Shown here in pieces: positions 2,736 through 19,565 of a DNA stretch of 20,656 nt; the first letter of the stretch is position 1, and every line of letters begins with the position of its first letter. The position numbers were made by a program, and so were the translations under genes. Where the stretch lies: positions 1 to 20,656 of the IMG/VR virus record IMGVR_UViG_2778261572_000002; one strand, written 5' to 3'. The notes beneath the pieces were generated by a model that saw only the letters and a program-made list of their open reading frames with translations, did no database searches and was not told where the DNA came from. Origin of the DNA: a virus. Taxonomy: Duplodnaviria > Heunggongvirae > Uroviricota > Caudoviricetes.

Positions 2736-3815
2736 TCACCCCTCACGTGGAAAAGGCTGAATATCAATATTTCCCGGGCGCAGCCATTCCCACGTTGACG
2801 CGTTAATAATGGCTTTTACGTTGTCTGCTGGCGTAATGATTCGCCGGTCACTGACACCGGAAATTAATGAAATCTGGGTTTCCAGTTGTGAAATAATTAA
2901 TTCTTGCCCCGGCTCCAGTCGGTTCATAAAATCCGTGATAACGTCAGTTATCTGCGGTTTTATCTGCTCAACGGTCAGGCCGCTGGTTTTTACCCGGACA
3001 ACGAAATCAACGGCTTTTTTCGTCGGGGCCAGCACCATCGTGTCCTTCGCCGTCACCGGGCGAACTTCCTCAATATGTGCCAGCACGGCATTAATCAGTT
3101 CCTGCGAGGGGAGGTCATTGGCTGACGTAATGGCCACATCAACCGTTCCCAGTCCACGACGCAATGGCTCCACATATGCCGAGGTAACGCCATCCACTTC
3201 CAGCGCCCAGCGTTTGTAATCATATTTGTTACCGCCAGCGGGTGGCCTGCGCAGAATATCCAGATAACGCGCCAGCAGGTCGGCGTCACTTTCCCTGTCC
3301 GTTCCGCCAGTCAGGGATTTAATCGTCACCGTGCTGTTGATGCCTTCCGGCGGACTGACCAGCGTTGCCGTCTGCGTTGTGGATACGTTCGTCTGTGCGC
3401 CCGTGGTGGTGCTTTTTACCGTCACCTCCGCGCTGCCTTCATCACCGATGGTGCAGTCTGCGGTGGTGGCCACGCTGACACCTTCACCGCGAATTTCCGC
3501 ACCGGCTGGCAGCATCTTACCGGGGGTACCGGTAATCACCACCGGACCGGATGAGGCTGTTGCTTTTTTACGAAAAACATTGCGCGTGCGGCAGTGCAGC
3601 TCCAGATATTCAGGGTCTGCCGTGTCAGGAAACACCTGACGGAGGATCCACCCCTGATGCATATAAAGCCCGTCCGCCACGCCGGATACGGCATTGGCAC
3701 GAATGCGGTAATCGCTGTCAGCGCCGGTGTCGATGGTTTCTCCCGGCAGGGCGTTAGCGATATCACGTAGCTGGCGTTCTGTGTTTTCAGCAACGCCCGG
3801 AACAGGAAACGGCAT
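2736..3815 (-). CDS. Baseplate J-like protein (Mu gp47 / P2 gpJ family)
   Basis: 359 aa; internal region ...DRESDADLLARYLDILRRPPAGGNKYDYKRWALEVDGV... is typical of the Baseplate_J family. ATG overlaps the upstream stop (TAATG). Confidence 0.85.
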   Translation of the reverse strand: MPFPVPGVAENTERQLRDIANALPGETIDTGADSDYRIRANAVSGVADGLYMHQGWILRQVFPDTADPEYLELHCRTRNVFRKKATASSGPVVITGTPGKMLPAGAEIRGEGVSVATTADCTIGDEGSAEVTVKSTTTGAQTNVSTTQTATLVSPPEGINSTVTIKSLTGGTDRESDADLLARYLDILRRPPAGGNKYDYKRWALEVDGVTSAYVEPLRRGLGTVDVAITSANDLPSQELINAVLAHIEEVRPVTAKDTMVLAPTKKAVDFVVRVKTSGLTVEQIKPQITDVITDFMNRLEPGQELIISQLETQISLISGVSDRRIITPADNVKAIINASTWEWLRPGNIDIQPFPREG

Positions 3816-4165
3816 TACATAATCCTCACAGGGTGTTCAAACGTCTGCGGTGTGCCCGCGTTATCCGTGACGGTGATTAGCAGCAACAACCAGCCGCGCT
3901 GCCCCGTTTTTGTGTCAACGGTAATTGCTGTCGCCCGCCCGTCATCGAGCAGGGGCTGAAGTGCCTGGCTGGCATACTGCGCCGCCAGCCTGTGGACACG
4001 GGAAACGTCTTTTTCCCGCTTCAGTTCGTGCAGGCGTGACCCCAGCGACGCATCCGCCCAGTAACTGCCAAGCGGTGTCGCCAGTCGCAGATAAACCGCG
4101 TTATGGAGTGTATAAATCCGGCGGTGTTCGTAGTCGCCGGTTGCAGGTGAAATCGTCTGGTCCAT
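3815..4165 (-). CDS. Mu gp46-like baseplate protein
   Basis: 116 aa ORF between the spike and baseplate J, the synteny position of Mu gp46. Only ATG 4165 is available in frame after the upstream stop. Assignment is by position and size only. Confidence 0.6.
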   Translation of the reverse strand: MDQTISPATGDYEHRRIYTLHNAVYLRLATPLGSYWADASLGSRLHELKREKDVSRVHRLAAQYASQALQPLLDDGRATAITVDTKTGQRGWLLLLITVTDNAGTPQTFEHPVRIM

Positions 4166-4218
4166 GCCGCCAGTCTGGCAGCATGGACAGGTCAGAATCA
4201 GGTGAGGGTGTTCAGCAC

Positions 4219-7416: not shown

Positions 7417-9647
7417 CAGTAAGTTCCTCCCGTGCCTCTGTTACCGTCCTGAAGGTTGTATTTATTCACCGCCTCTGCGATAACCTGCCCGTCGAGCACC
7501 ACCTGAGTGGTGACGTTCACCGGGGGCGCTGGCGGCTGTCCGCCATTCTGAACGCCGGGCTGACCACCACGTTTACCGGATGCATTAACGGTATCAGCCG
7601 CGGTCATCCCGGCTTGCTGTCGGACTTGTTCTGGTGTCGGCAGAGAATCACCGGCGATAACCCCGGTTTTTTTCAGTTCGTCAAGATACTGCTGGATCCA
7701 TTTTTCGTTTTCTGTTGAGTAACCTTCGCCAAACTGCCACCACGGCTGGTACTTTTCACGGGCAGCATCAATCAGCCACTGAGGATATTTAGCCCGTATA
7801 TTTTTCCAGCGTTCCTCGCTTCCTTCGACGGCGGCGTCTTCTTCCGGGCTGGTTGCTGTGGCCAGTGCCGTAACGGTGCCACCGAAAGAAAGCAGGCCAC
7901 CGGCAATGCCGGGAAGTTTTAACCCTTTGCCTTTCTTAATTGTGGTTTCAAGCACATCACCAACAACGTCGCCAATCTTGCCATCTGATTTTCCCCCGGT
8001 CAGGATTTTGACCCCGGCCCATGTCAGGGCCGCTGCGGTCATCGCTTCAATGGCGGTCGTGGCCCCCACCACTGCTGTGGTCAGCCCCGGAAACTTTTCA
8101 CCCGCCCAGCTTATGGCATCGGCCACAGTACCGGATGCATCCGCCAGCTTTTTCACGCTGTCCATTTGTGAAAATTCAAGCGTGTTTTTAGCCTGCCCGG
8201 TTTTAAAATCATTCGTGTCTGATATGAATTTAAAATCCACATCACCCGCGCGCTGACCTTCCGGCAGGGTGCGCTGCTGATTAATCGCGTCTTCAACCTT
8301 TTTCCGGTATTCAGGGTTGTTACGGTAGGCTAACAACGCCATCAACGCCTGACGGTCTGCAACCAGCTTTCCGAAACCAAAGCCTTCAAGGAGTGTTGCC
8401 ATCGAATCATAAACAGCCGTCTGCTCGCCTTTATCCCTGGCGGAGGCCAGTTTCTTTTGCAGCTCCTGATAGCGTTTATCGCTGGCAACAATTTTGTCTA
8501 TCAGGCTGGACAGCGCGTCTATCGGATTAAGTCCATGTTCGCGCGCTTCAGTCAGTGTGCCGGAAAAGTCGATTCCCTTACCGTTGTAATTTATCCCCGC
8601 AGCCGCTGTTTCAATATCCTTACTGGTCAGTTTTGCCAGCAGGTTAACCACGTTATTTCCGGCCTCATCACTGCTGCCCGCCGTGATGGCGGCAGCTTCA
8701 TTCAGCGCCAGAATCTTGACGAAATCATCTTTGCCTTTCATCCCCGCAGCTGACGCAGCGCCCATTTGCTGGGATAACCAGCGGGCCATGTCGTTCAGTT
8801 CAAAGCTGCCTTCTTTGCCCGCTGCAATCGCCATATTCAGAACGGTGGAAATATCTTCATCCCTGAATCCAAAGGTCTTTTTGCCCTTAATCATCACCTT
8901 AGCCAGGTCTGTCGCTGATGCACCGGAAGCCGTGGCGTATTTCATCAGTTCAGGCAGCCACTTACTGGCTGTTTCAAATGAAATGCCGTCTTTCAGCAGG
9001 GCATCCAGCGTTTCGGCTGCATCCTCTTTCGTGCCACCACCATAGGTCACTGCGTTACGGATGCTGCTTTTCATCTGTTCAAGACCGGCTTTGCGCCCCT
9101 CCAGTCCACCATCACTGAAGGCGGTATTCGCCATCATTGCCAGCTGGCGTTCGTAGCTCATCTGCTTTTTGACCGGCTGCGCCATAATGGCAGCACCTGC
9201 TGCGATACCACCGCCAATTGTCAGAACGTTGCCGCCGATATTGGCCGCCTTTGCCAGCGTGCCGACACCGCGCATTTCCCGCTTCAGCTCCCGGATTTGT
9301 TCTTTCGTGGCACGCCATGCCCGCGCCTGTTCGCGGGCAGACATGACGCCACTACGGGCAAGGCGGTTATAACTGGCTTCAGTAAGGGCGATTTCCCGGC
9401 GGATTTCATGCTCCGAACGGATGCCAAGCGTTTCCCGGGCACGAGCTGCACGCTGTAATTCGGTGACAACCCTTTTTGTGCTGTTGATGCTCTCATCATC
9501 GGTGCGTTTCTGCTCCTGACCTGCCTTTTTGGTTGCTTTTTCCACTCCTTCAGTGGCTTTTACAACCTTCTTTTTTCCCTTTTCCAGAACCTGCGAGGCT
9601 TCGTCCTTCGCAGTCAGGGTCATGCCAACTTTGAAATTACCGGCCAT
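7416..9647 (-). CDS. Tail tape measure protein
   Basis: 743 aa, Ala/Gly/Lys-rich with predicted long helical segments; located after the tube and chaperone genes. Confidence 0.9.
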   Translation of the reverse strand: MAGNFKVGMTLTAKDEASQVLEKGKKKVVKATEGVEKATKKAGQEQKRTDDESINSTKRVVTELQRAARARETLGIRSEHEIRREIALTEASYNRLARSGVMSAREQARAWRATKEQIRELKREMRGVGTLAKAANIGGNVLTIGGGIAAGAAIMAQPVKKQMSYERQLAMMANTAFSDGGLEGRKAGLEQMKSSIRNAVTYGGGTKEDAAETLDALLKDGISFETASKWLPELMKYATASGASATDLAKVMIKGKKTFGFRDEDISTVLNMAIAAGKEGSFELNDMARWLSQQMGAASAAGMKGKDDFVKILALNEAAAITAGSSDEAGNNVVNLLAKLTSKDIETAAAGINYNGKGIDFSGTLTEAREHGLNPIDALSSLIDKIVASDKRYQELQKKLASARDKGEQTAVYDSMATLLEGFGFGKLVADRQALMALLAYRNNPEYRKKVEDAINQQRTLPEGQRAGDVDFKFISDTNDFKTGQAKNTLEFSQMDSVKKLADASGTVADAISWAGEKFPGLTTAVVGATTAIEAMTAAALTWAGVKILTGGKSDGKIGDVVGDVLETTIKKGKGLKLPGIAGGLLSFGGTVTALATATSPEEDAAVEGSEERWKNIRAKYPQWLIDAAREKYQPWWQFGEGYSTENEKWIQQYLDELKKTGVIAGDSLPTPEQVRQQAGMTAADTVNASGKRGGQPGVQNGGQPPAPPVNVTTQVVLDGQVIAEAVNKYNLQDGNRGTGGTY

Positions 9648-14943: not shown

Positions 14944-16113
14944 TTACTTATCTCCTGCGTAACGGGCGACATCCTCTGGATCGACGCCCATCATTGAACA
15001 AATGGCGATATCGACATCGACGTCATCGCCGGTTTTAATCTGCGCCGGGGCAGGCGACGGCGTTTTGGGTGGTTTGCCGCCGGTCTGGGTGCTGCTGAGT
15101 GCGGCAAGCGGGGCGGTTTTATCCAGCCAGGTTTTAAAACCGTTGATATCGCGGCTGGCGTAATCTTTCGCCCAGTCTTCCAGCGTCGGAAGCAGTCGTC
15201 CGTCAGACAGCGCCGCCTGAATCAGTGCCCCGGCTTCGGCCTCACCGGACTGTTGCGCCAGTACGGCATAACGTCCCTGAAGTTCTTCATATGCCGTCAG
15301 AGGGATATGCTTCGTCGGGTCATAGGCATTTGCTGACAGGCTGGCGATTTGCTCGTCTTTCTGATTCAGCAGGGCCAGCAGGCCAACAGAAGCCGCTGCC
15401 GTTCCTTTGCCACCGGAAATAGCATCAATAATTTTTTGCAGTTCATTTTTAATGTCTTCCGGCGTTGAGGTTGCCGGGAGGTTCAGCGTCCAGCGCAGAC
15501 TGGACAGCAAATCGCTTAACAGTTCTTCATCCACTGTTGTGGTCTCCGTTTCAGTTGACAGACTCGCCAGACGGCTGGCCGCAGCCAGCATGACCGCGTC
15601 CATACCGTCGAGCGCCGGGGTATTGGTCAGCGCAGCATGTAACAGCTCCAGCACTTCGCCGCGCTTGTTGTAGGCAAAAACAGGGGAAATAAATTTGTAC
15701 TCACCGGCGGCAATCATGGCCGCCGCGTTCTCCGTCCACTCCACACCAGTGGCATACAGGCCCGCACCTTCTCGCCATTCCACCTGGCTGAACCAGCCCG
15801 CCGCCGGGGCGGGCTTGCCGTTGTTTACGGCGCGCAGCGTCTGATGTTCGTAATCAATGACAAATGGCGTGGTACGGGCTGCCACCTGCGCGACAAGCTG
15901 CGCGGCCAGTTCGGCAGTCAGCACCCATTTACCGCTTTCGACTTCATCGGTATGTGGGCGACCATCCACCGCACTGAACTCGCCCGCCGGAAACAGCTGG
16001 ATTTCGCTGTGGGTTGCTTTAGTAATTTCGAGGCTTAATGCCGCAATGTTCATCTTCATACGCGGCATGATGACGAAAGGGGAACACGGGGTACTGTTGA
16101 GGGTGTTCAGCAC
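14944..16113 (-). CDS. Head maturation protease / scaffold (Mu I-like)
   Basis: Large ORF preceding the capsid gene. The track start is GTG 16113; alternative ATGs at 16068, 16059 and 16053 (MPRMKMNIAAL...). None has a clear SD, so the N-terminus is uncertain by up to 20 codons. Confidence 0.75.
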   Translation of the reverse strand: MLNTLNSTPCSPFVIMPRMKMNIAALSLEITKATHSEIQLFPAGEFSAVDGRPHTDEVESGKWVLTAELAAQLVAQVAARTTPFVIDYEHQTLRAVNNGKPAPAAGWFSQVEWREGAGLYATGVEWTENAAAMIAAGEYKFISPVFAYNKRGEVLELLHAALTNTPALDGMDAVMLAAASRLASLSTETETTTVDEELLSDLLSSLRWTLNLPATSTPEDIKNELQKIIDAISGGKGTAAASVGLLALLNQKDEQIASLSANAYDPTKHIPLTAYEELQGRYAVLAQQSGEAEAGALIQAALSDGRLLPTLEDWAKDYASRDINGFKTWLDKTAPLAALSSTQTGGKPPKTPSPAPAQIKTGDDVDVDIAICSMMGVDPEDVARYAGDK

Positions 16114-16151
16114 CCGGCCATAACGGGAAAGGATAAAAGTGGAAATAAAAC

Positions 16152-16176
16152 CGTTTTTAAAACCCTTTTAAAAACG
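16152..16176. promoter_or_regulatory. Perfect 11-bp inverted repeat with 3-bp spacer (CGTTTTTAAAA-CCC-TTTTAAAAACG) in the G-I intergenic region; candidate late-activator operator or promoter element
   Basis: Seen directly at 16152-16162 / 16166-16176. It is in the only sizeable non-coding gap of the head operon, 40-100 nt upstream of the I-like start candidates, and is followed on the coding strand by an AT-rich stretch with TTTTAT elements. Confidence 0.35.
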
Positions 16177-16268
16177 ATTCTGACGGCATTTACGGGGTGC
16201 GGTGCTGTAATGCCTCATCCGTGAGGCGTTTATGTCGTCAGAGTCGATTACAGCGCGTTTGTGGTCAT

Positions 16269-16820
16269 TCAGTCAATCACACGCGCAAAATAGCGGTTTG
16301 CGGTGTTCTCCAGCTCGTCGATGTCGTCCTGCACAAGCTGAAGGAAGGGGCGCGCGGGCATGCTGACCGTATACGCTCCCACTGTTGCGCTCTGCACAAA
16401 ATTACTGTTGCGCTTTTTCACAAAGCGGGTGCTGACGCTGCCGTTTTTGTACTGTTTAAAATACAGGTTCTGCGTCCGTGCCTGATGGCGGATTTCGCCG
16501 CCTTCGTTGTGGATACGGGCGTAACGGACGTTTGTCCCGACCGTGGCCTCGTTATTGTTAACCGCAGAGCGGATACTGGCAGCCAGTCGCCCGGACTTCT
16601 GGAGGATTTGCCCGGGGCCGCGTCGCTTCGCATAAGCCGGACTCCAGCCCATCCATTTCGGGCGACCCTGTTGTTCAAAGTTAGTCTCAACCGCATCCAG
16701 CATGGAACCCGCAAGCGCCGTCATCAGGTCGCGCCGGTCCTTCACGGAACGAATCAGTTTCCCCAGCGTGGTGTTATACGCGCTTAAATCAATCTTAATA
16801 TCCAGTTTACCGTTGCTCAT
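16269..16820 (-). CDS. Virion morphogenesis protein (Mu G-like)
   Basis: 183 aa; GGAGG SD; ATGA overlap with the F-like gene; C-terminal ...SMPARPFLQLVQDDIDE... is typical of Mu G-type proteins. Confidence 0.8.
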   Translation of the reverse strand: MSNGKLDIKIDLSAYNTTLGKLIRSVKDRRDLMTALAGSMLDAVETNFEQQGRPKWMGWSPAYAKRRGPGQILQKSGRLAASIRSAVNNNEATVGTNVRYARIHNEGGEIRHQARTQNLYFKQYKNGSVSTRFVKKRNSNFVQSATVGAYTVSMPARPFLQLVQDDIDELENTANRYFARVID

Positions 16821-17983
16821 GATGCCTCCGGGGTATCCTGCATAACCCAGTCTGTCAGCGCGTCATCCTCAACCGTCACCACCGACCAGCGGTCGCCCGA
16901 CTGTAACGCATACCGCCACGCGTTGCCGTCCTGTGTGACATGCTCTGCCCGTTCGATGGTCTGCTGCATCAGCACATAGTCGGCGGCGGTCGGGGGCGTG
17001 TCTGTTGCACTGAGGCGCTTCATGACGTCAGCCGTAAGGTTTACCGTCTGCCGTGCAGCGCCTGTGGCGGCGACCTGTTCCGGTGAACGGATGGCCAGCG
17101 GATATCGCTGGCGCGCATCCAGTTCGCTGACGTTCGCCAGTCCCCGGGAAAAATCCGGCCCGGTCAGGGTGCCGGTGACATACTGGCGAGCGCTGCGGTA
17201 ATCGTATTTTTCCAGTTCCGGCTGCCATGCCGCTTTGCCGGGGTTAAAACCGAAGCCCGGGTCAGCGGTGTATACGGAGCCATCCGGCATCTTCAGCCCC
17301 ATTGTTCTGATGGTCTGGCCCGGCTGGCCATATTCCTGCTCAACCTCAACCAGTCGCCCCTCGCTGCTCTGCACCGTCAGGCCATATTTCTCCACATCAG
17401 ACGCCGAACGCGCCCGGATACGGCAGCGGCATCCGTATCCGTCCGGCGCGTAGAAATACTCCCAGACCGGGTCATCCGCCCGGGCGGTAAAACCGTTCAG
17501 GGCGGCGTGTTTCGGGCGGGTGTGAAGGTCCATCACCGCCACGCGCTCAAAATAAGGCCGGTCGGCCACGTTCGCCATCTGCTGCTGATAGCGTCCGGCG
17601 TTGTAGGACGACTGAATATTGGTATCAAATATCGTGCGCAACCGGCGCGACGTCAGCTGCCTGCCGTGCAGTTCGCCGGTGTCCTCGTCCACAATCAGCT
17701 TTTTACCCAGCCAGCCTTTTGATTCCAGCAGTGGTTCCAGTTGTGCAGCAAACTCCCGGAACGTCCCGCCGTCAGCCAGTGCGGCCGTCAGGCCATCACG
17801 GATATCCTTCAGCACATCCAGTTTCAGCACGCCCGCCACCGTGAACGCCCGGGCGTGTGCGATGTCCTTCACATCGTGCCAGCGGAAGCCGATAACGTAT
17901 CCCTTGCTTTCGAAATACTTAATCGCTTCTTCCGGCTTCAGGGTGTACGCATACCCCAGGTCAACATCGTCAGCTGTCGGCAT
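16817..17983 (-). CDS. Head morphogenesis protein (Mu F-like minor head protein)
   Basis: 388 aa directly downstream of the portal; contains ...HTRPKHAALNGFTARADDPVWEYFYAPDGYGCRCRIRA..., characteristic of the Mu F / SPP1 gp7 family. Confidence 0.85.
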   Translation of the reverse strand: MPTADDVDLGYAYTLKPEEAIKYFESKGYVIGFRWHDVKDIAHARAFTVAGVLKLDVLKDIRDGLTAALADGGTFREFAAQLEPLLESKGWLGKKLIVDEDTGELHGRQLTSRRLRTIFDTNIQSSYNAGRYQQQMANVADRPYFERVAVMDLHTRPKHAALNGFTARADDPVWEYFYAPDGYGCRCRIRARSASDVEKYGLTVQSSEGRLVEVEQEYGQPGQTIRTMGLKMPDGSVYTADPGFGFNPGKAAWQPELEKYDYRSARQYVTGTLTGPDFSRGLANVSELDARQRYPLAIRSPEQVAATGAARQTVNLTADVMKRLSATDTPPTAADYVLMQQTIERAEHVTQDGNAWRYALQSGDRWSVVTVEDDALTDWVMQDTPEAS

Positions 17984-19565
17984 TCAGTCGCCCCCAGATA
18001 TCCGCCACAAAGAATGCCTGCGTCAGCAACTGCCGCAGCGTGTCATCCGGCAGCTCCGGCCATGCTTCCGCCAGTACGTTCATGGCCTCGTCTGCATCCC
18101 GGCCTTCCTGTATGGCCTGCACCAGTGGGGCCACCAGCTCGTTCATTCCCTGCGCGATGGCTTCTGCCGGAAGTTCTGCCCGGTCGATGGCGCGTTGTGC
18201 CGGGTCGTCCTCTCCGTTGTCCTGCTGACTGAGTGCAGCAACATTCAGTCGCTCACGCAGCTGGCTGAGGCCCGCCTGCACAGGCAGACGCTGTGCCACC
18301 GGCACCAGTACCTCTTCGCCGTCTTTCGGGGTGGGGATACCGGTTTTTTTGCGTACCCACGACGCCGGGATATCCTTCATACCCACACTGTTGAGCAACA
18401 CGCTGACGGCGTCCGCCACGCCCTTAATGTCGGCTTCCTGCTGCACATCAAACACCAGTCGCGGCAGACGGCGGGGCGGGATATCCTGCCAGCCGTTGAG
18501 GCTGGCCATCATCTGTATCAGGCTGCTGAACATGCCGGACAGCTGGCGTGCATCGGCGGCCAGAATGTCGTGCCGGACCTCGTTATGCACATTACCCAGC
18601 GCGTTGGTGGAGGTTTTACCGTCAGCCTGGCTGGTCAGCGTACTGCCCAGAATCACTTTTGAGGTGGTGCGCTCTGCCCATTCCACCATCGACATGAACG
18701 CCTCCGGTCCGCCGGACGCGGCCTCCTTGAACTCAATTTCGTTACCCTGCGGCAGGGCTGCCACCGCTTCATGACCCAGATTGACCAGCGCCTCAAGAAT
18801 GTTGTCCCGGTCCTCGTCACTGGTGCCCTGTGCATAGTAGGCAATACGCGCCGGAAGGCCGTAAATCTCCAGAAATTCTGCCATATCACGCAGCGCAAAG
18901 TTTTTGAACAGATATGGCCAGACCAGTACGCGGAACAGGCCGGATGAACCCAGGAACCCCGACCGGGCGTTGTAACGGTGAACCAGCCAGCCGAACGGCC
19001 ACAGCGCGGAACCGTCCTTACCATCCTCCCCACGATTGCCGTCATCCAGACGGAGTTCGTCATTGTGTTCCGGCAGGGTAATAAACCAGTTATGCGGGCG
19101 CAGCGTCACCGCATCCGGTAACCACGTTTTATCCACGAACGCCCAACTGATTTCCTGACAGCTGAAGCCATAACCGACACTGCTCATCCCGTTGAGGATG
19201 ATGTCCTCCATGTCCGGGATGCCGTGCAGCCATTCATCCACGGCGGCAGCCAGCTCCTTTTCTGCCTTCGAGGCATTGCGGGGCGGCTCCACCGACCAGT
19301 CCAGCGTCAGCAACGCTTTTTTGCGCTTTTCCATCTCGGCGAACAGATGGCCATCACGTTCTTCCATATCCGCAAACAGCATCGCCTGCGCCGGAAGATA
19401 GCCGCGCTCGGCGGCTTCCAGAATGCGCGGCAGTTTTCTGATGTTCAGACCACGGGACGGGTGGTCGGGATAAATGCGCAGCCGTTCCGCCACTCTGACC
19501 GACTGCGTGGTTTTGAGTGCCTCACGTTTCAGCGGGCGTCCGTAAATATCAACAAGCTGTGCCAT
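17970..19565 (-). CDS. Portal protein (Mu gp29-like)
   Basis: Start moved from 19571 to the second ATG at 19563-19565 (MAQLVDIYGRPLK...): GGAGG directly abuts the first ATG (spacing 0) but is 6 nt from the second, which overlaps the terminase TAA by 1 nt. About 531 aa, immediately after the terminase. Confidence 0.85.
   Translation of the reverse strand: MAQLVDIYGRPLKREALKTTQSVRVAERLRIYPDHPSRGLNIRKLPRILEAAERGYLPAQAMLFADMEERDGHLFAEMEKRKKALLTLDWSVEPPRNASKAEKELAAAVDEWLHGIPDMEDIILNGMSSVGYGFSCQEISWAFVDKTWLPDAVTLRPHNWFITLPEHNDELRLDDGNRGEDGKDGSALWPFGWLVHRYNARSGFLGSSGLFRVLVWPYLFKNFALRDMAEFLEIYGLPARIAYYAQGTSDEDRDNILEALVNLGHEAVAALPQGNEIEFKEAASGGPEAFMSMVEWAERTTSKVILGSTLTSQADGKTSTNALGNVHNEVRHDILAADARQLSGMFSSLIQMMASLNGWQDIPPRRLPRLVFDVQQEADIKGVADAVSVLLNSVGMKDIPASWVRKKTGIPTPKDGEEVLVPVAQRLPVQAGLSQLRERLNVAALSQQDNGEDDPAQRAIDRAELPAEAIAQGMNELVAPLVQAIQEGRDADEAMNVLAEAWPELPDDTLRQLLTQAFFVADIWGRLNADS

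Follow-up and report, generated by a model that had tools for sequence, protein, structure and literature searches.

A perfect palindrome between genes G and I of a Mu-like Escherichia coli prophage is probably part of a central strong gyrase site, upstream of a separate predicted late promoter

We analysed a stretch of viral DNA of 20,656 nucleotides (Caudoviricetes; IMG/VR record IMGVR_UViG_2778261572_000002, positions 1 to 20,656), referred to below as the window, which belongs to a Mu-like prophage of Escherichia coli and has all its genes on the minus strand. The subject is a perfect AT-rich palindrome in the gap between the gene for a G-like virion morphogenesis protein and the gene for an I-like protease/scaffold protein. 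A previous, sequence-only reading of the same DNA had proposed that this palindrome is the operator of a late promoter. Our analysis suggests that the G-I gap would consist of two separate modules, a candidate gyrase site and, ~50 bp past the palindrome, a late promoter. We consider it probable that the palindrome is a piece of the right arm belonging to the strong gyrase site (SGS) in the centre of the prophage, rather than a promoter operator. Very probably, the gap also holds, at 16111-16060 and separate from the palindrome, a late promoter of the Mor/C type that is equivalent to the PI promoter of phage Mu. No high-affinity gyrase substrate has been studied as thoroughly as the SGS of Mu, which serves as the standard DNA in structural and single-molecule investigations of this enzyme.

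Positions 15800-16900 of the window are 95-99% identical to a Mu-like prophage that 55 of 5426 complete E. coli genomes carry, among them that of the enteropathogenic (EPEC) strain E2348/69, whose prophage (L046) is ~94% identical to the window. A blastn search against a phage collection revealed no close phage, the best match being 73% over 111 nt, and identity with the Sp18-type Mu-like prophage of O157 Sakai was rejected by sequence comparison. As a reference we used L001, a complete prophage of strain TUM9812 which is 97% identical to the window and inserted in araJ. The window is equivalent to L001 4195-24861. L001 also supplied the prophage ends, lysis genes and activator gene, which lie outside the window. 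The ends are found at 1724/5 and 38983 (TG... at 38983 and ...TTAC at 1724/5, with 5-bp target duplications), which gives a length of 37.26 kb, and the layout is Mu-like (repressor, transposase A/B, one Mor-family gene, lysis, terminase, portal, F, G, I, T, tail, baseplate, fibres). For comparison we included five related prophages (L002-L006, from Intestinirhabdus, Buttiauxella, Photorhabdus, Xenorhabdus and Trabulsiella), whose I proteins are 56-67% identical, and a wider set of 32 Mu-like loci from Gamma- and Betaproteobacteria, in which the identity of the I proteins goes down to ~36%.

The palindrome, CGTTTTTAAAA-ccc-TTTTAAAAACG, occupies positions 16152-16176 and has perfect 11-bp arms and a 3-bp spacer, exactly as the sequence-only reading had described it. 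No other perfect inverted repeat of the window combines arms of at least 10 bp with a spacer of 10 bp or less. Dinucleotide-shuffled windows are expected to contain 0.04 perfect repeats with arms of at least 11 bp, and none of 2000 shuffles of the gap alone yielded a repeat with 11-bp arms, so the palindrome exceeds chance. Its components are two T/A tracts, T5A4 and T4A5, each of them self-complementary, with a distance of 11 bp from one TpA step to the other. Because TnAn tracts are self-complementary, two adjacent ones automatically form an inverted repeat, and the perfect symmetry is thus a by-product of the arrangement. In line with this, E. coli and Buttiauxella alone retain perfect symmetry, which four of the five relatives have lost. 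The feature conserved across the relatives is a direct repeat, in which units of (T)TTAAA(N)GGG follow each other in tandem at 11-12 bp: the left half of the palindrome, ATCGTTTTTAAA, is conserved in all five and the right half reads GGGGTTTAA(A/C). As the symmetry needs no selection of its own, the palindrome might be a functionless by-product of AT-rich intergenic drift or a recombination scar. This is, however, hardly credible. Although their gaps differ by 3-8%, seven E. coli variants share an unchanged block of 42 nt around the palindrome, the left half has been kept in every relative, and the element is strongly enriched in the G-I gap across Mu-like prophages (see below).

The Mu SGS lies at the centre of the genome, is needed for efficient replicative transposition and organises the prophage as a supercoiled domain, and it is found in Mu-like prophages; its right arm is essential, the left arm is not, and the right arm carries phased anisotropic bending signals with the A/T minor grooves toward the GyrA C-terminal domain (PMC10052514, PMC3820752, PMC6379681, PMC11626157, PMC13284261). 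The Mu G-I gap is best known for this site, which the sequence-only reading had left out of account. In the Mu record, gyrase cuts at 17879/80, between G, which ends at 17859, and I, which starts at 18056. The palindrome of the window is found in the same intergenic slot and likewise near the prophage centre, namely at 49.97% of the L001 prophage, compared to 48.7% for the Mu site. In the E2348/69 prophage the palindrome is at ~53.8%. That its G-I gap is at ~54% rather than 50% may be due to an additional DNA-methyltransferase gene between the DUF1804 gene and terL (L046 14350-15090), and to the tail-fibre end, which differs and is shorter.

The candidate strong gyrase site of the window extends over 16120-16230 on the minus strand. 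Its orientation would be the same as in Mu, with the core by G and the right arm toward gene I. Both sites have tandem TnAn tracts followed by G/C, 11-12 bp apart, and the tracts of the window align with those of the right arm of Mu, which reads ...AGATTTTTTAAAACGCGCCACGGGATTTTTAAACCGGTATTTAACGG... and has a TTAAA/TTTAA pentamer pair at +33 to +56 from the gyrase cut. In a MAFFT alignment, Mu GGGATTTTTAAACCGGTATTTAACGG is aligned with window ATCGTTTTTAAAAGGGTTTTAAAAACGG and with all relatives, and the Mu cut (ATC/AGCC, with the slash at the cut) is opposite CATTAC/AGCA of the window, at ~16207. The predicted cleavage position is therefore ~16207 +/- 3, with 16229 as the alternative. The two sites also differ. 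The predicted core of the window site is ~60 nt past the G stop codon, in contrast to 20 nt in Mu, the difference being due to an additional stem-loop of the E. coli lineage at this place. Moreover, the two main tracts form a perfect palindrome in the window but not in Mu.

We then counted TTAAA/TTTAA pentamer pairs 10-13 bp apart in 31 of the Mu-like loci. They are found within the 275 nt upstream of the I promoter in 13 of these loci, which represent nine independent lineages including Mu. These upstream regions, which together amount to 8.5 kb, contain 14 clusters of such pairs, compared to 24 in 598 kb elsewhere. This corresponds to 1.64 versus 0.040 per kb, a 41-fold enrichment (Poisson P=2.5e-18). 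Dinucleotide shuffles of these regions gave 0.28 +/- 0.5 clusters with a maximum of 3, compared to the 14 observed. The tandem T/A element of the window would thus be the local version of one that is carried by many Mu-like prophages between G and I.

To compare the gap with known gyrase substrates we used a composition-neutral AT/GC pattern derived from a published 133-nt consensus string. The template is crude and its score is a proxy for that of a weight matrix. On Mu, whose real cut is known, the true site comes 28th among 73,170 positions, with an offset of 3 nt. In the window, the best proxy score anywhere is at 16229 (z=4.5) and the second peak is at 16210 (z=3.0). The top score of the 41-kb L001 locus falls at the equivalent place in the gap. 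In L002, L003 and L006, the best position within the gap is 35 nt upstream of the T/A pair, as is the case in Mu. A template based on base identity, built from the same consensus, failed the Mu control (rank 305-2083) and was discarded.

The A/T runs of the gap are regularly spaced. Their centres lie at -150.5, -131, -111, -99, -87.5, -76.5 and -62.5 from the gene I ATG, with spacings of 12, 11.5, 11 and 14 bp downstream of the palindrome and ~20 bp upstream of it. These positions are conserved in the relatives, even where the sequence and polarity of the runs differ. A periodogram of AT content over 66 bp (16131-16196) peaks at 10.75 bp (z=4.3), and z values for AT periodicity in the gap are ~3-4.3. 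The gyrase motif defined by Topo-Seq consists of a central region and ~47-bp arms with an AT/GC periodicity of 10.75 bp (Sutormin et al., 2019, PMC6379681). With the weight matrix of that study, the Mu SGS has a score of 14.3, no site of the E. coli genome exceeds ~15, and the site on plasmid pSC101 reaches 16. The window has the same period, and its repeat unit, TTTAA plus a G run, corresponds to the flank of the gyrase consensus. Unlike in the Topo-Seq motif, the A/T tracts of the window extend further and comprise about nine tracts.

A number of observations weigh against the assignment of the palindrome to a gyrase site. In the relatives the crude consensus template ranks the gap just 4th to 39th among the peaks, and an AT/GC-pattern template made from Mu gives the gap the first rank in L001 but leaves it outside the top three of the window. 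The AT periodicity (66-130 bp) is elevated but not unique, with a rank of 3-10 in the window, and it is a weak and unvalidated detector because Mu's own SGS ranks only ~30th. The similarity between the Mu and window gaps in a pairwise comparison is marginal overall (P ~0.04). Binding, cleavage and processive supercoiling by gyrase at this sequence, and a need of the site for replication, are predictions, in contrast to Mu. The prophage ends that define the centre, and likewise the activator gene discussed below, are known via a 97%-identical relative and not from the window itself. Oram and Pato reportedly found in 2004 that not every Mu-like central site supports Mu replication. Finally, the conservation of TTTAAAC-GGG across distant phages could equally fit a sequence-specific protein.

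The last point leads to an alternative, in which the tandem TTTAAA(A/C)-GGG repeats would be bound specifically not by gyrase but by some other protein, be it H-NS, Fis, IHF, HU or a conserved phage protein, that bends or organises the prophage centre or tunes the late promoter. In its favour, conservation is seen at the level of sequence, beyond AT/GC phasing, in phages whose I proteins are ~40% identical, and the tracts are at -62 to -111 from the predicted transcription start, where upstream bending can affect promoters. It is also known that, besides the SGS, the domain formed by the Mu prophage requires IHF, Fis and HU (PMC3820752). We nevertheless regard this alternative as unlikely. No IHF/Fis consensus (WATCAANNNNTTR or GNNYAWWWWWTRNNC) is present within 16060-16268 at up to one mismatch, and there is no candidate for the protein. 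The tandem element is absent from the other two late promoters of the prophage and is thus not a general promoter accessory. The ~11-bp unit of a T/A tract and a G run is the periodic unit of the flank of the gyrase consensus, ...CCTTTAAGGGGGCCTTTTGG..., and it has the same orientation to the cleavage centre.

If the palindrome is indeed part of a strong gyrase site, gyrase would bind with its cleavage centre at ~16207, or alternatively at 16229, by analogy with Mu. The two tracts of the palindrome, one helical turn apart, would be part of a ~90-bp run of helically phased A/T tracts. This phased and anisotropically flexible right arm would wrap on the GyrA C-terminal domain and present the T-segment. 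The outcome would be supercoiling of high processivity that starts at the exact middle of the prophage and would assist synapsis of its two ends in replicative transposition. If confirmed, another natural family of SGSs, diverged from that of Mu, would make it possible to separate the needs of gyrase from peculiarities of Mu. It would also provide a usable signature, namely TnAn tracts that follow each other at one helical turn with G-rich spacers in between, of which a perfect palindromic version is available in the prophage of the 55 E. coli genomes mentioned above. The broad conservation of the tandem T/A signature and the proposed promoter/start-codon fusion described below deserve to be followed up.

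The segment between the G stop codon and the palindrome contains an imperfect stem-loop (16204-16254, minus strand). Its outer stem, GCTGTAAT/ATTACAGC (16204-16211 and 16247-16254), encloses an inner hairpin at 16212-16227 that reads GCCTCA-cgga-TGAGGC on the minus strand. This is the GC-rich hairpin GCCTCA-tccg-TGAGGC that had been noticed before. The stem-loop folds at -16.6 kcal/mol (z=-2.3) and overlaps the predicted gyrase G-segment. It is confined to the E. coli lineage, where one C-to-T change among the variants keeps a G-U pair and another change breaks the outer stem. L002-L006 carry other hairpins in its place. Directly after the G stop codon, relatives have hairpins of the type AAACGCGC...GCGCGTTTTT (L002 9800-9830, L003 9800-9835, L004 9750-9790), which by eye resemble intrinsic terminators. 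In the E. coli lineage, the 3' half of this hairpin is replaced by the GCCTCA hairpin segment. A terminator scan of the relatives did not call the post-G hairpins, because their loops exceed 8 nt and the T run is partly within the stem.

These terminator-like structures, GC hairpins with T runs right after G as judged by eye, suggest that termination between G and I is wanted. They bear on an alternative function of the palindrome, whose RNA might form an AU-rich hairpin followed by a U-rich tract and act as a weak intrinsic terminator or attenuator of the lysis-to-G transcript before the I promoter. The sense RNA can indeed form a hairpin of 16 pairs with -12.3 kcal/mol (z=-4.3; 0 of 200 shuffles were as good), followed by AUUUCCACUUUUAU, and this hairpin persists when the whole gap is folded. 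However, its stem has two G-C pairs only, most of the U run is consumed in the stem, and the terminator scan does not call it. Moreover, the hairpin is absent in four of the five relatives: the corresponding segments of L002, L004, L005 and L006 fold at -4.8 to -6.7 kcal/mol into other shapes, although the T/A tracts are conserved. Neither do the equivalent tracts of Mu form a hairpin. We therefore consider a terminator quite improbable and continue to favour a gyrase site.

The late promoter was located by listing all intergenic gaps of L001, which revealed a shared box. GCTGAACACCCTCA occurs in three copies at 0-1 mismatch in L001 (positions 8410, 20312 and 27734), where 0 are expected. Each copy is on the sense strand and stands at the head of a late operon. 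One is upstream of the holin/lysis genes (L001 27734), one upstream of gene I (window 16111) and one upstream of a gp46-like baseplate gene (window 4216). The copy in the G-I gap, GCTGAACACCCTCAAC, occupies 16096-16111 on the minus strand. It is a 16-bp imperfect dyad and the presumed site of a late activator of the Mor/C family. It is followed, 23 nt downstream, by the -10-like hexamer CATCAT (16067-16072), which in turn ends 6-7 nt before the ATG of gene I. The second module of the window (4165-4216, minus strand) has the same architecture: the box GCTGAACACCCTCACC at 4216-4201, the hexamer CAGACT at 4177-4172, then GGCGGC and the ATG at 4165. This ATG starts the gp46-like gene (3815-4165, minus strand; Pfam GP46). 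The five relatives have a box, GCTGAACCCCCTCAGC, at an equal distance from the I start and a second copy ~7.8 kb upstream, that is, two copies each within the DNA examined.

The dyad of the box is GCTGA-N6-TCAGC, 16 bp in length and imperfect in E. coli. Another dyad that can be seen in E. coli, GGGTG-CTGAA-CACCC, is not conserved in the relatives, which is why we take the former as the relevant one. In Trabulsiella (L006 3284 and 9944) both copies of the box share the variant CCCTCTCA, and the E. coli copies all have ACACCC. The copies thus covary within each phage, as expected for sites that are read by a phage-specific factor. A hexamer N-A-N-N-N-T is found exactly 23 nt past the box in 15 of 16 copies, compared to a background frequency of 0.043; the hexamers seen are CATCAT, CAGACT, TACCCT, CACAAT, TATGCT, TACACT and CAGAAT. 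The one copy that lacks it is an intragenic chance match. A sigma-70 scan of the gap found no -35/-10 pair. TTGACT-18 nt-TGTAAT after the G stop codon was rejected as a sigma-70 promoter, since it is partly coding and lacks the essential A at position 2 of the -10 element. Readings of the box as an extracytoplasmic function (ECF)-type promoter (TGAAC-N16-CGT) or a sigma-E promoter were, by eye, inconsistent between the copies.

A candidate for the activator is encoded outside the window. L001 28064-28531 specifies a distant Mor/C-family protein (WP_001192995; Pfam Mor, 29.1 bits at a cut-off of 24.9), which shares an FLGG..FYIP segment with Mu C and Mor and is the only one of its kind in the prophage. 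Immediately upstream of this gene, in L001 28532-28642, a GC-hairpin terminator and its T run precede TTGACT...TATAAT, the spacer of which is overlong. The late box is missing from this stretch, as would fit the use of a separate early or middle promoter by the activator gene. In the model that we propose, the Mor/C-family activator of the prophage would bind the 16-bp dyad, no -35 element would be involved, CATCAT would serve as the -10 hexamer, and transcription would start at the A of the gene I ATG or at the preceding T. The suggestion of the sequence-only reading that the G-I gap contains a late promoter, as in Mu, is thereby supported by an activator-type module whose box recurs at three late-operon heads. 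Its start site has to be moved, though: transcripts had been expected to begin within 16114-16150, and the geometry of the box and the -10 hexamer predicts 16059/16060 instead. In its new place, the late promoter is a motif that can be annotated for the late operons of this prophage family.

That the palindrome itself is the late-activator operator, with transcription starting at 16114-16150 and the TTTTAT tracts as -10 element, now appears very unlikely. The AT-rich TTTTAT tracts are at 16133-16150. There are some arguments for this model. A hexamer, TATCCT (16135-16130), lies downstream of the palindrome. The plus strand of the palindrome (TTTAAAACCCTTTTAA) matches 13 of the 16 positions of ATTAAAACCCTTTAAT, an activator box of the TTAAAACCCTTTAAT type. 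In a subgroup formed by L016, L019 and L024, ATTAAAACCCTTTAAT is found at the place of the activator box (-51 to -36) ahead of gene I, and it occurs twice in L024, each time followed by a -10-like hexamer and an ATG. However, a search for the palindrome ahead of other late operons, which had been put forward as a check of the operator, found only a single copy in the 41-kb prophage locus, even with 3 mismatches allowed. Being unique in the prophage, the palindrome is not a shared late-operon operator, and the heads of the three late operons share a different box. The geometry is also wrong. TATCCT is 2-3 nt too close when measured against the fixed 23-nt spacing, and on the plus strand no -10-like hexamer is found at the required distance, which also eliminates an antisense promoter on the palindrome. 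The C-rich centre of the palindrome is on the antisense strand, whereas it is on the sense strand in every box type seen. Finally, only one Mor-family gene is present, and in the relatives, four of which have lost the symmetry, the element is a direct repeat and not a dyad. A part of the right arm of a gyrase site thus remains the more probable identity of the palindrome.

Upstream, the gap is bounded by the G-like virion morphogenesis gene (16269-16820, minus strand), which matches Pfam Phage_tail_S (E=2e-26) and is annotated as 'phage virion morphogenesis protein' in near-identical prophages. Downstream lies the I-like protease/scaffold gene (14944-16059, minus strand; 371 aa; Pfam Mu-like_Pro, E=1e-98). 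We place its start at ATG 16059 (16059-16057), as the Prokaryotic Genome Annotation Pipeline (PGAP) uses the equivalent ATG in every related genome. The homologues align from residue 1 of this version, the second ATG is not conserved, and in L004 an in-frame stop codon precedes the ATG. The GTG at 16113, previously listed as a start candidate, falls inside the conserved promoter box, and the 389-aa version of the protein that begins there is an artefact of this box. With the start annotation of gene I corrected in this way, the non-coding interval extends from 16060 to 16268 and has 209 nt, instead of the ~155 nt estimated before. It had been singled out as the only substantial non-coding interval in the head gene block, and it is by far the largest gap of the late region, the next largest in the window-equivalent part being 53 nt. 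It contains no plausible small open reading frame, and an Rfam covariance-model search of it returned only sub-threshold, chance-level matches.

The late promoters of Mu have a 16-bp imperfect dyad for C centred at -43.5 and a recognisable -10 element, but no -35 element (PMC2582627). The modules described here share much of this design. Their dyads have the same 5+6+5 layout with a C-rich centre, as is seen when Mu Pmom (ATTAT-GCCCCA-ATAAC) is compared to the window (GCTGA-ACACCC-TCAAC). With 23 nt between the dyad and the -10-like hexamer, the window dyad would, as judged from the hexamer, be centred at about -43.5, again without a -35 element. A copy stands ahead of each of the lysis, head (I) and baseplate operons, and a Mor-family protein is encoded. 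Several features are different. The half-sites are CTGA/TCAG in the window but TTAT/ATAA in Mu, and there is one Mor/C-family gene here as opposed to two in Mu. The baseplate copy precedes a gp46-like gene and not a homologue of P. Moreover, the I and gp46 genes start at the predicted +1 without a Shine-Dalgarno sequence, whereas Mu gene I has AGGA 3 nt before its ATG. The idea of the sequence-only reading that the activator specificity differs from that of Mu is therefore in agreement with our results: the boxes are of the GCTGA-N6-TCAGC type rather than the TTAT-N6-ATAA type of Mu C, and the encoded Mor/C-family protein is a distant one.

The position of the hexamer has a consequence for translation. 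If it occupies -12 to -7, the +1 would be at 16060/16059 for gene I, coincident with the ATG (16059-16057, minus strand), and at 4165, the A of the ATG, for gp46. As transcription would start at the ATG and neither gene has a Shine-Dalgarno sequence, the mRNAs are predicted to be leaderless. It is a serious possibility, which we advance tentatively, that the gene I transcript is truly leaderless. Equally tentatively, the late promoter may be fused with the translation start of gene I in this clade, apparently in most Mu-like prophages and, in the case of the window, at the baseplate gene as well. When the 60 nt upstream of gene I were examined, an N-A-N-N-N-T hexamer ending 6-8 nt before the start codon, without a Shine-Dalgarno sequence, was found in 29 of the 32 Mu-like loci (e.g. 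L010 9919-9971 and L024 9926-9977). In the O157-type prophage, too, TATGCT is followed by 6 nt and the ATG. The types of box differ between subgroups: CTGAA..TTCAG is found in 14 loci, TTAAAACCCTTTA in three and sequences like TAAACCGGTTTA in others. One of the three TTAAAACCCTTTA loci has a second copy, which is again followed by a hexamer, 6 nt and an ATG. This pattern suggests that leaderless late mRNAs would be a trait of the Mu-like family, and that activator specificities may have co-evolved with their box sites across the Mu-like loci. If 5' ends were found at 16059/60 and 4165, activator-dependent leaderless late mRNAs would appear to be general in transposable phages. We know of no description of them as a general feature of this group.

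In many Mu-like loci, a GC-rich inverted repeat flanks the -10-like hexamer of gene I and ends at the start codon (L010, L013, L016, L008, L019, L022 and L024). An example is GCCGCC-GACACT-GGCGGC-ATG, and the gp46 copy of the window (4163-4183, minus strand) reads GCTGCC-AGACT-GGCGGC-ATG. The repeat could form an RNA hairpin in read-through transcripts, be a protein site over the -10 element, or serve as a GC clamp that sensitises the promoter to supercoiling. Should it act as RNA, this would argue against a purely leaderless model. Late expression could also be coupled to local supercoiling, because the promoter adjoins the central gyrase site and because many copies have, between hexamer and ATG, a GC-rich segment with an inverted repeat on its flanks.

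A few further observations concern other parts of the prophages. Positions 1-152 of the window match more than 20 overlapping positions, multiples of 54 nt apart, in the tail-fibre gene of L001 (L001 2955-4346). This spacing indicates a long array of 18-aa repeats. The tape-measure region (7514-9354) is the sole part of the window that aligns poorly with L001 (patches of 83-84%), which suggests mosaic exchange. Finally, the RefSeq annotation of the Sp18-type prophage of O157:H7 has a 'tRNA-OTHER' (L051 356-435) between its F-like and G-like head genes, on the opposite strand, a feature to which nothing in the window prophage is comparable.

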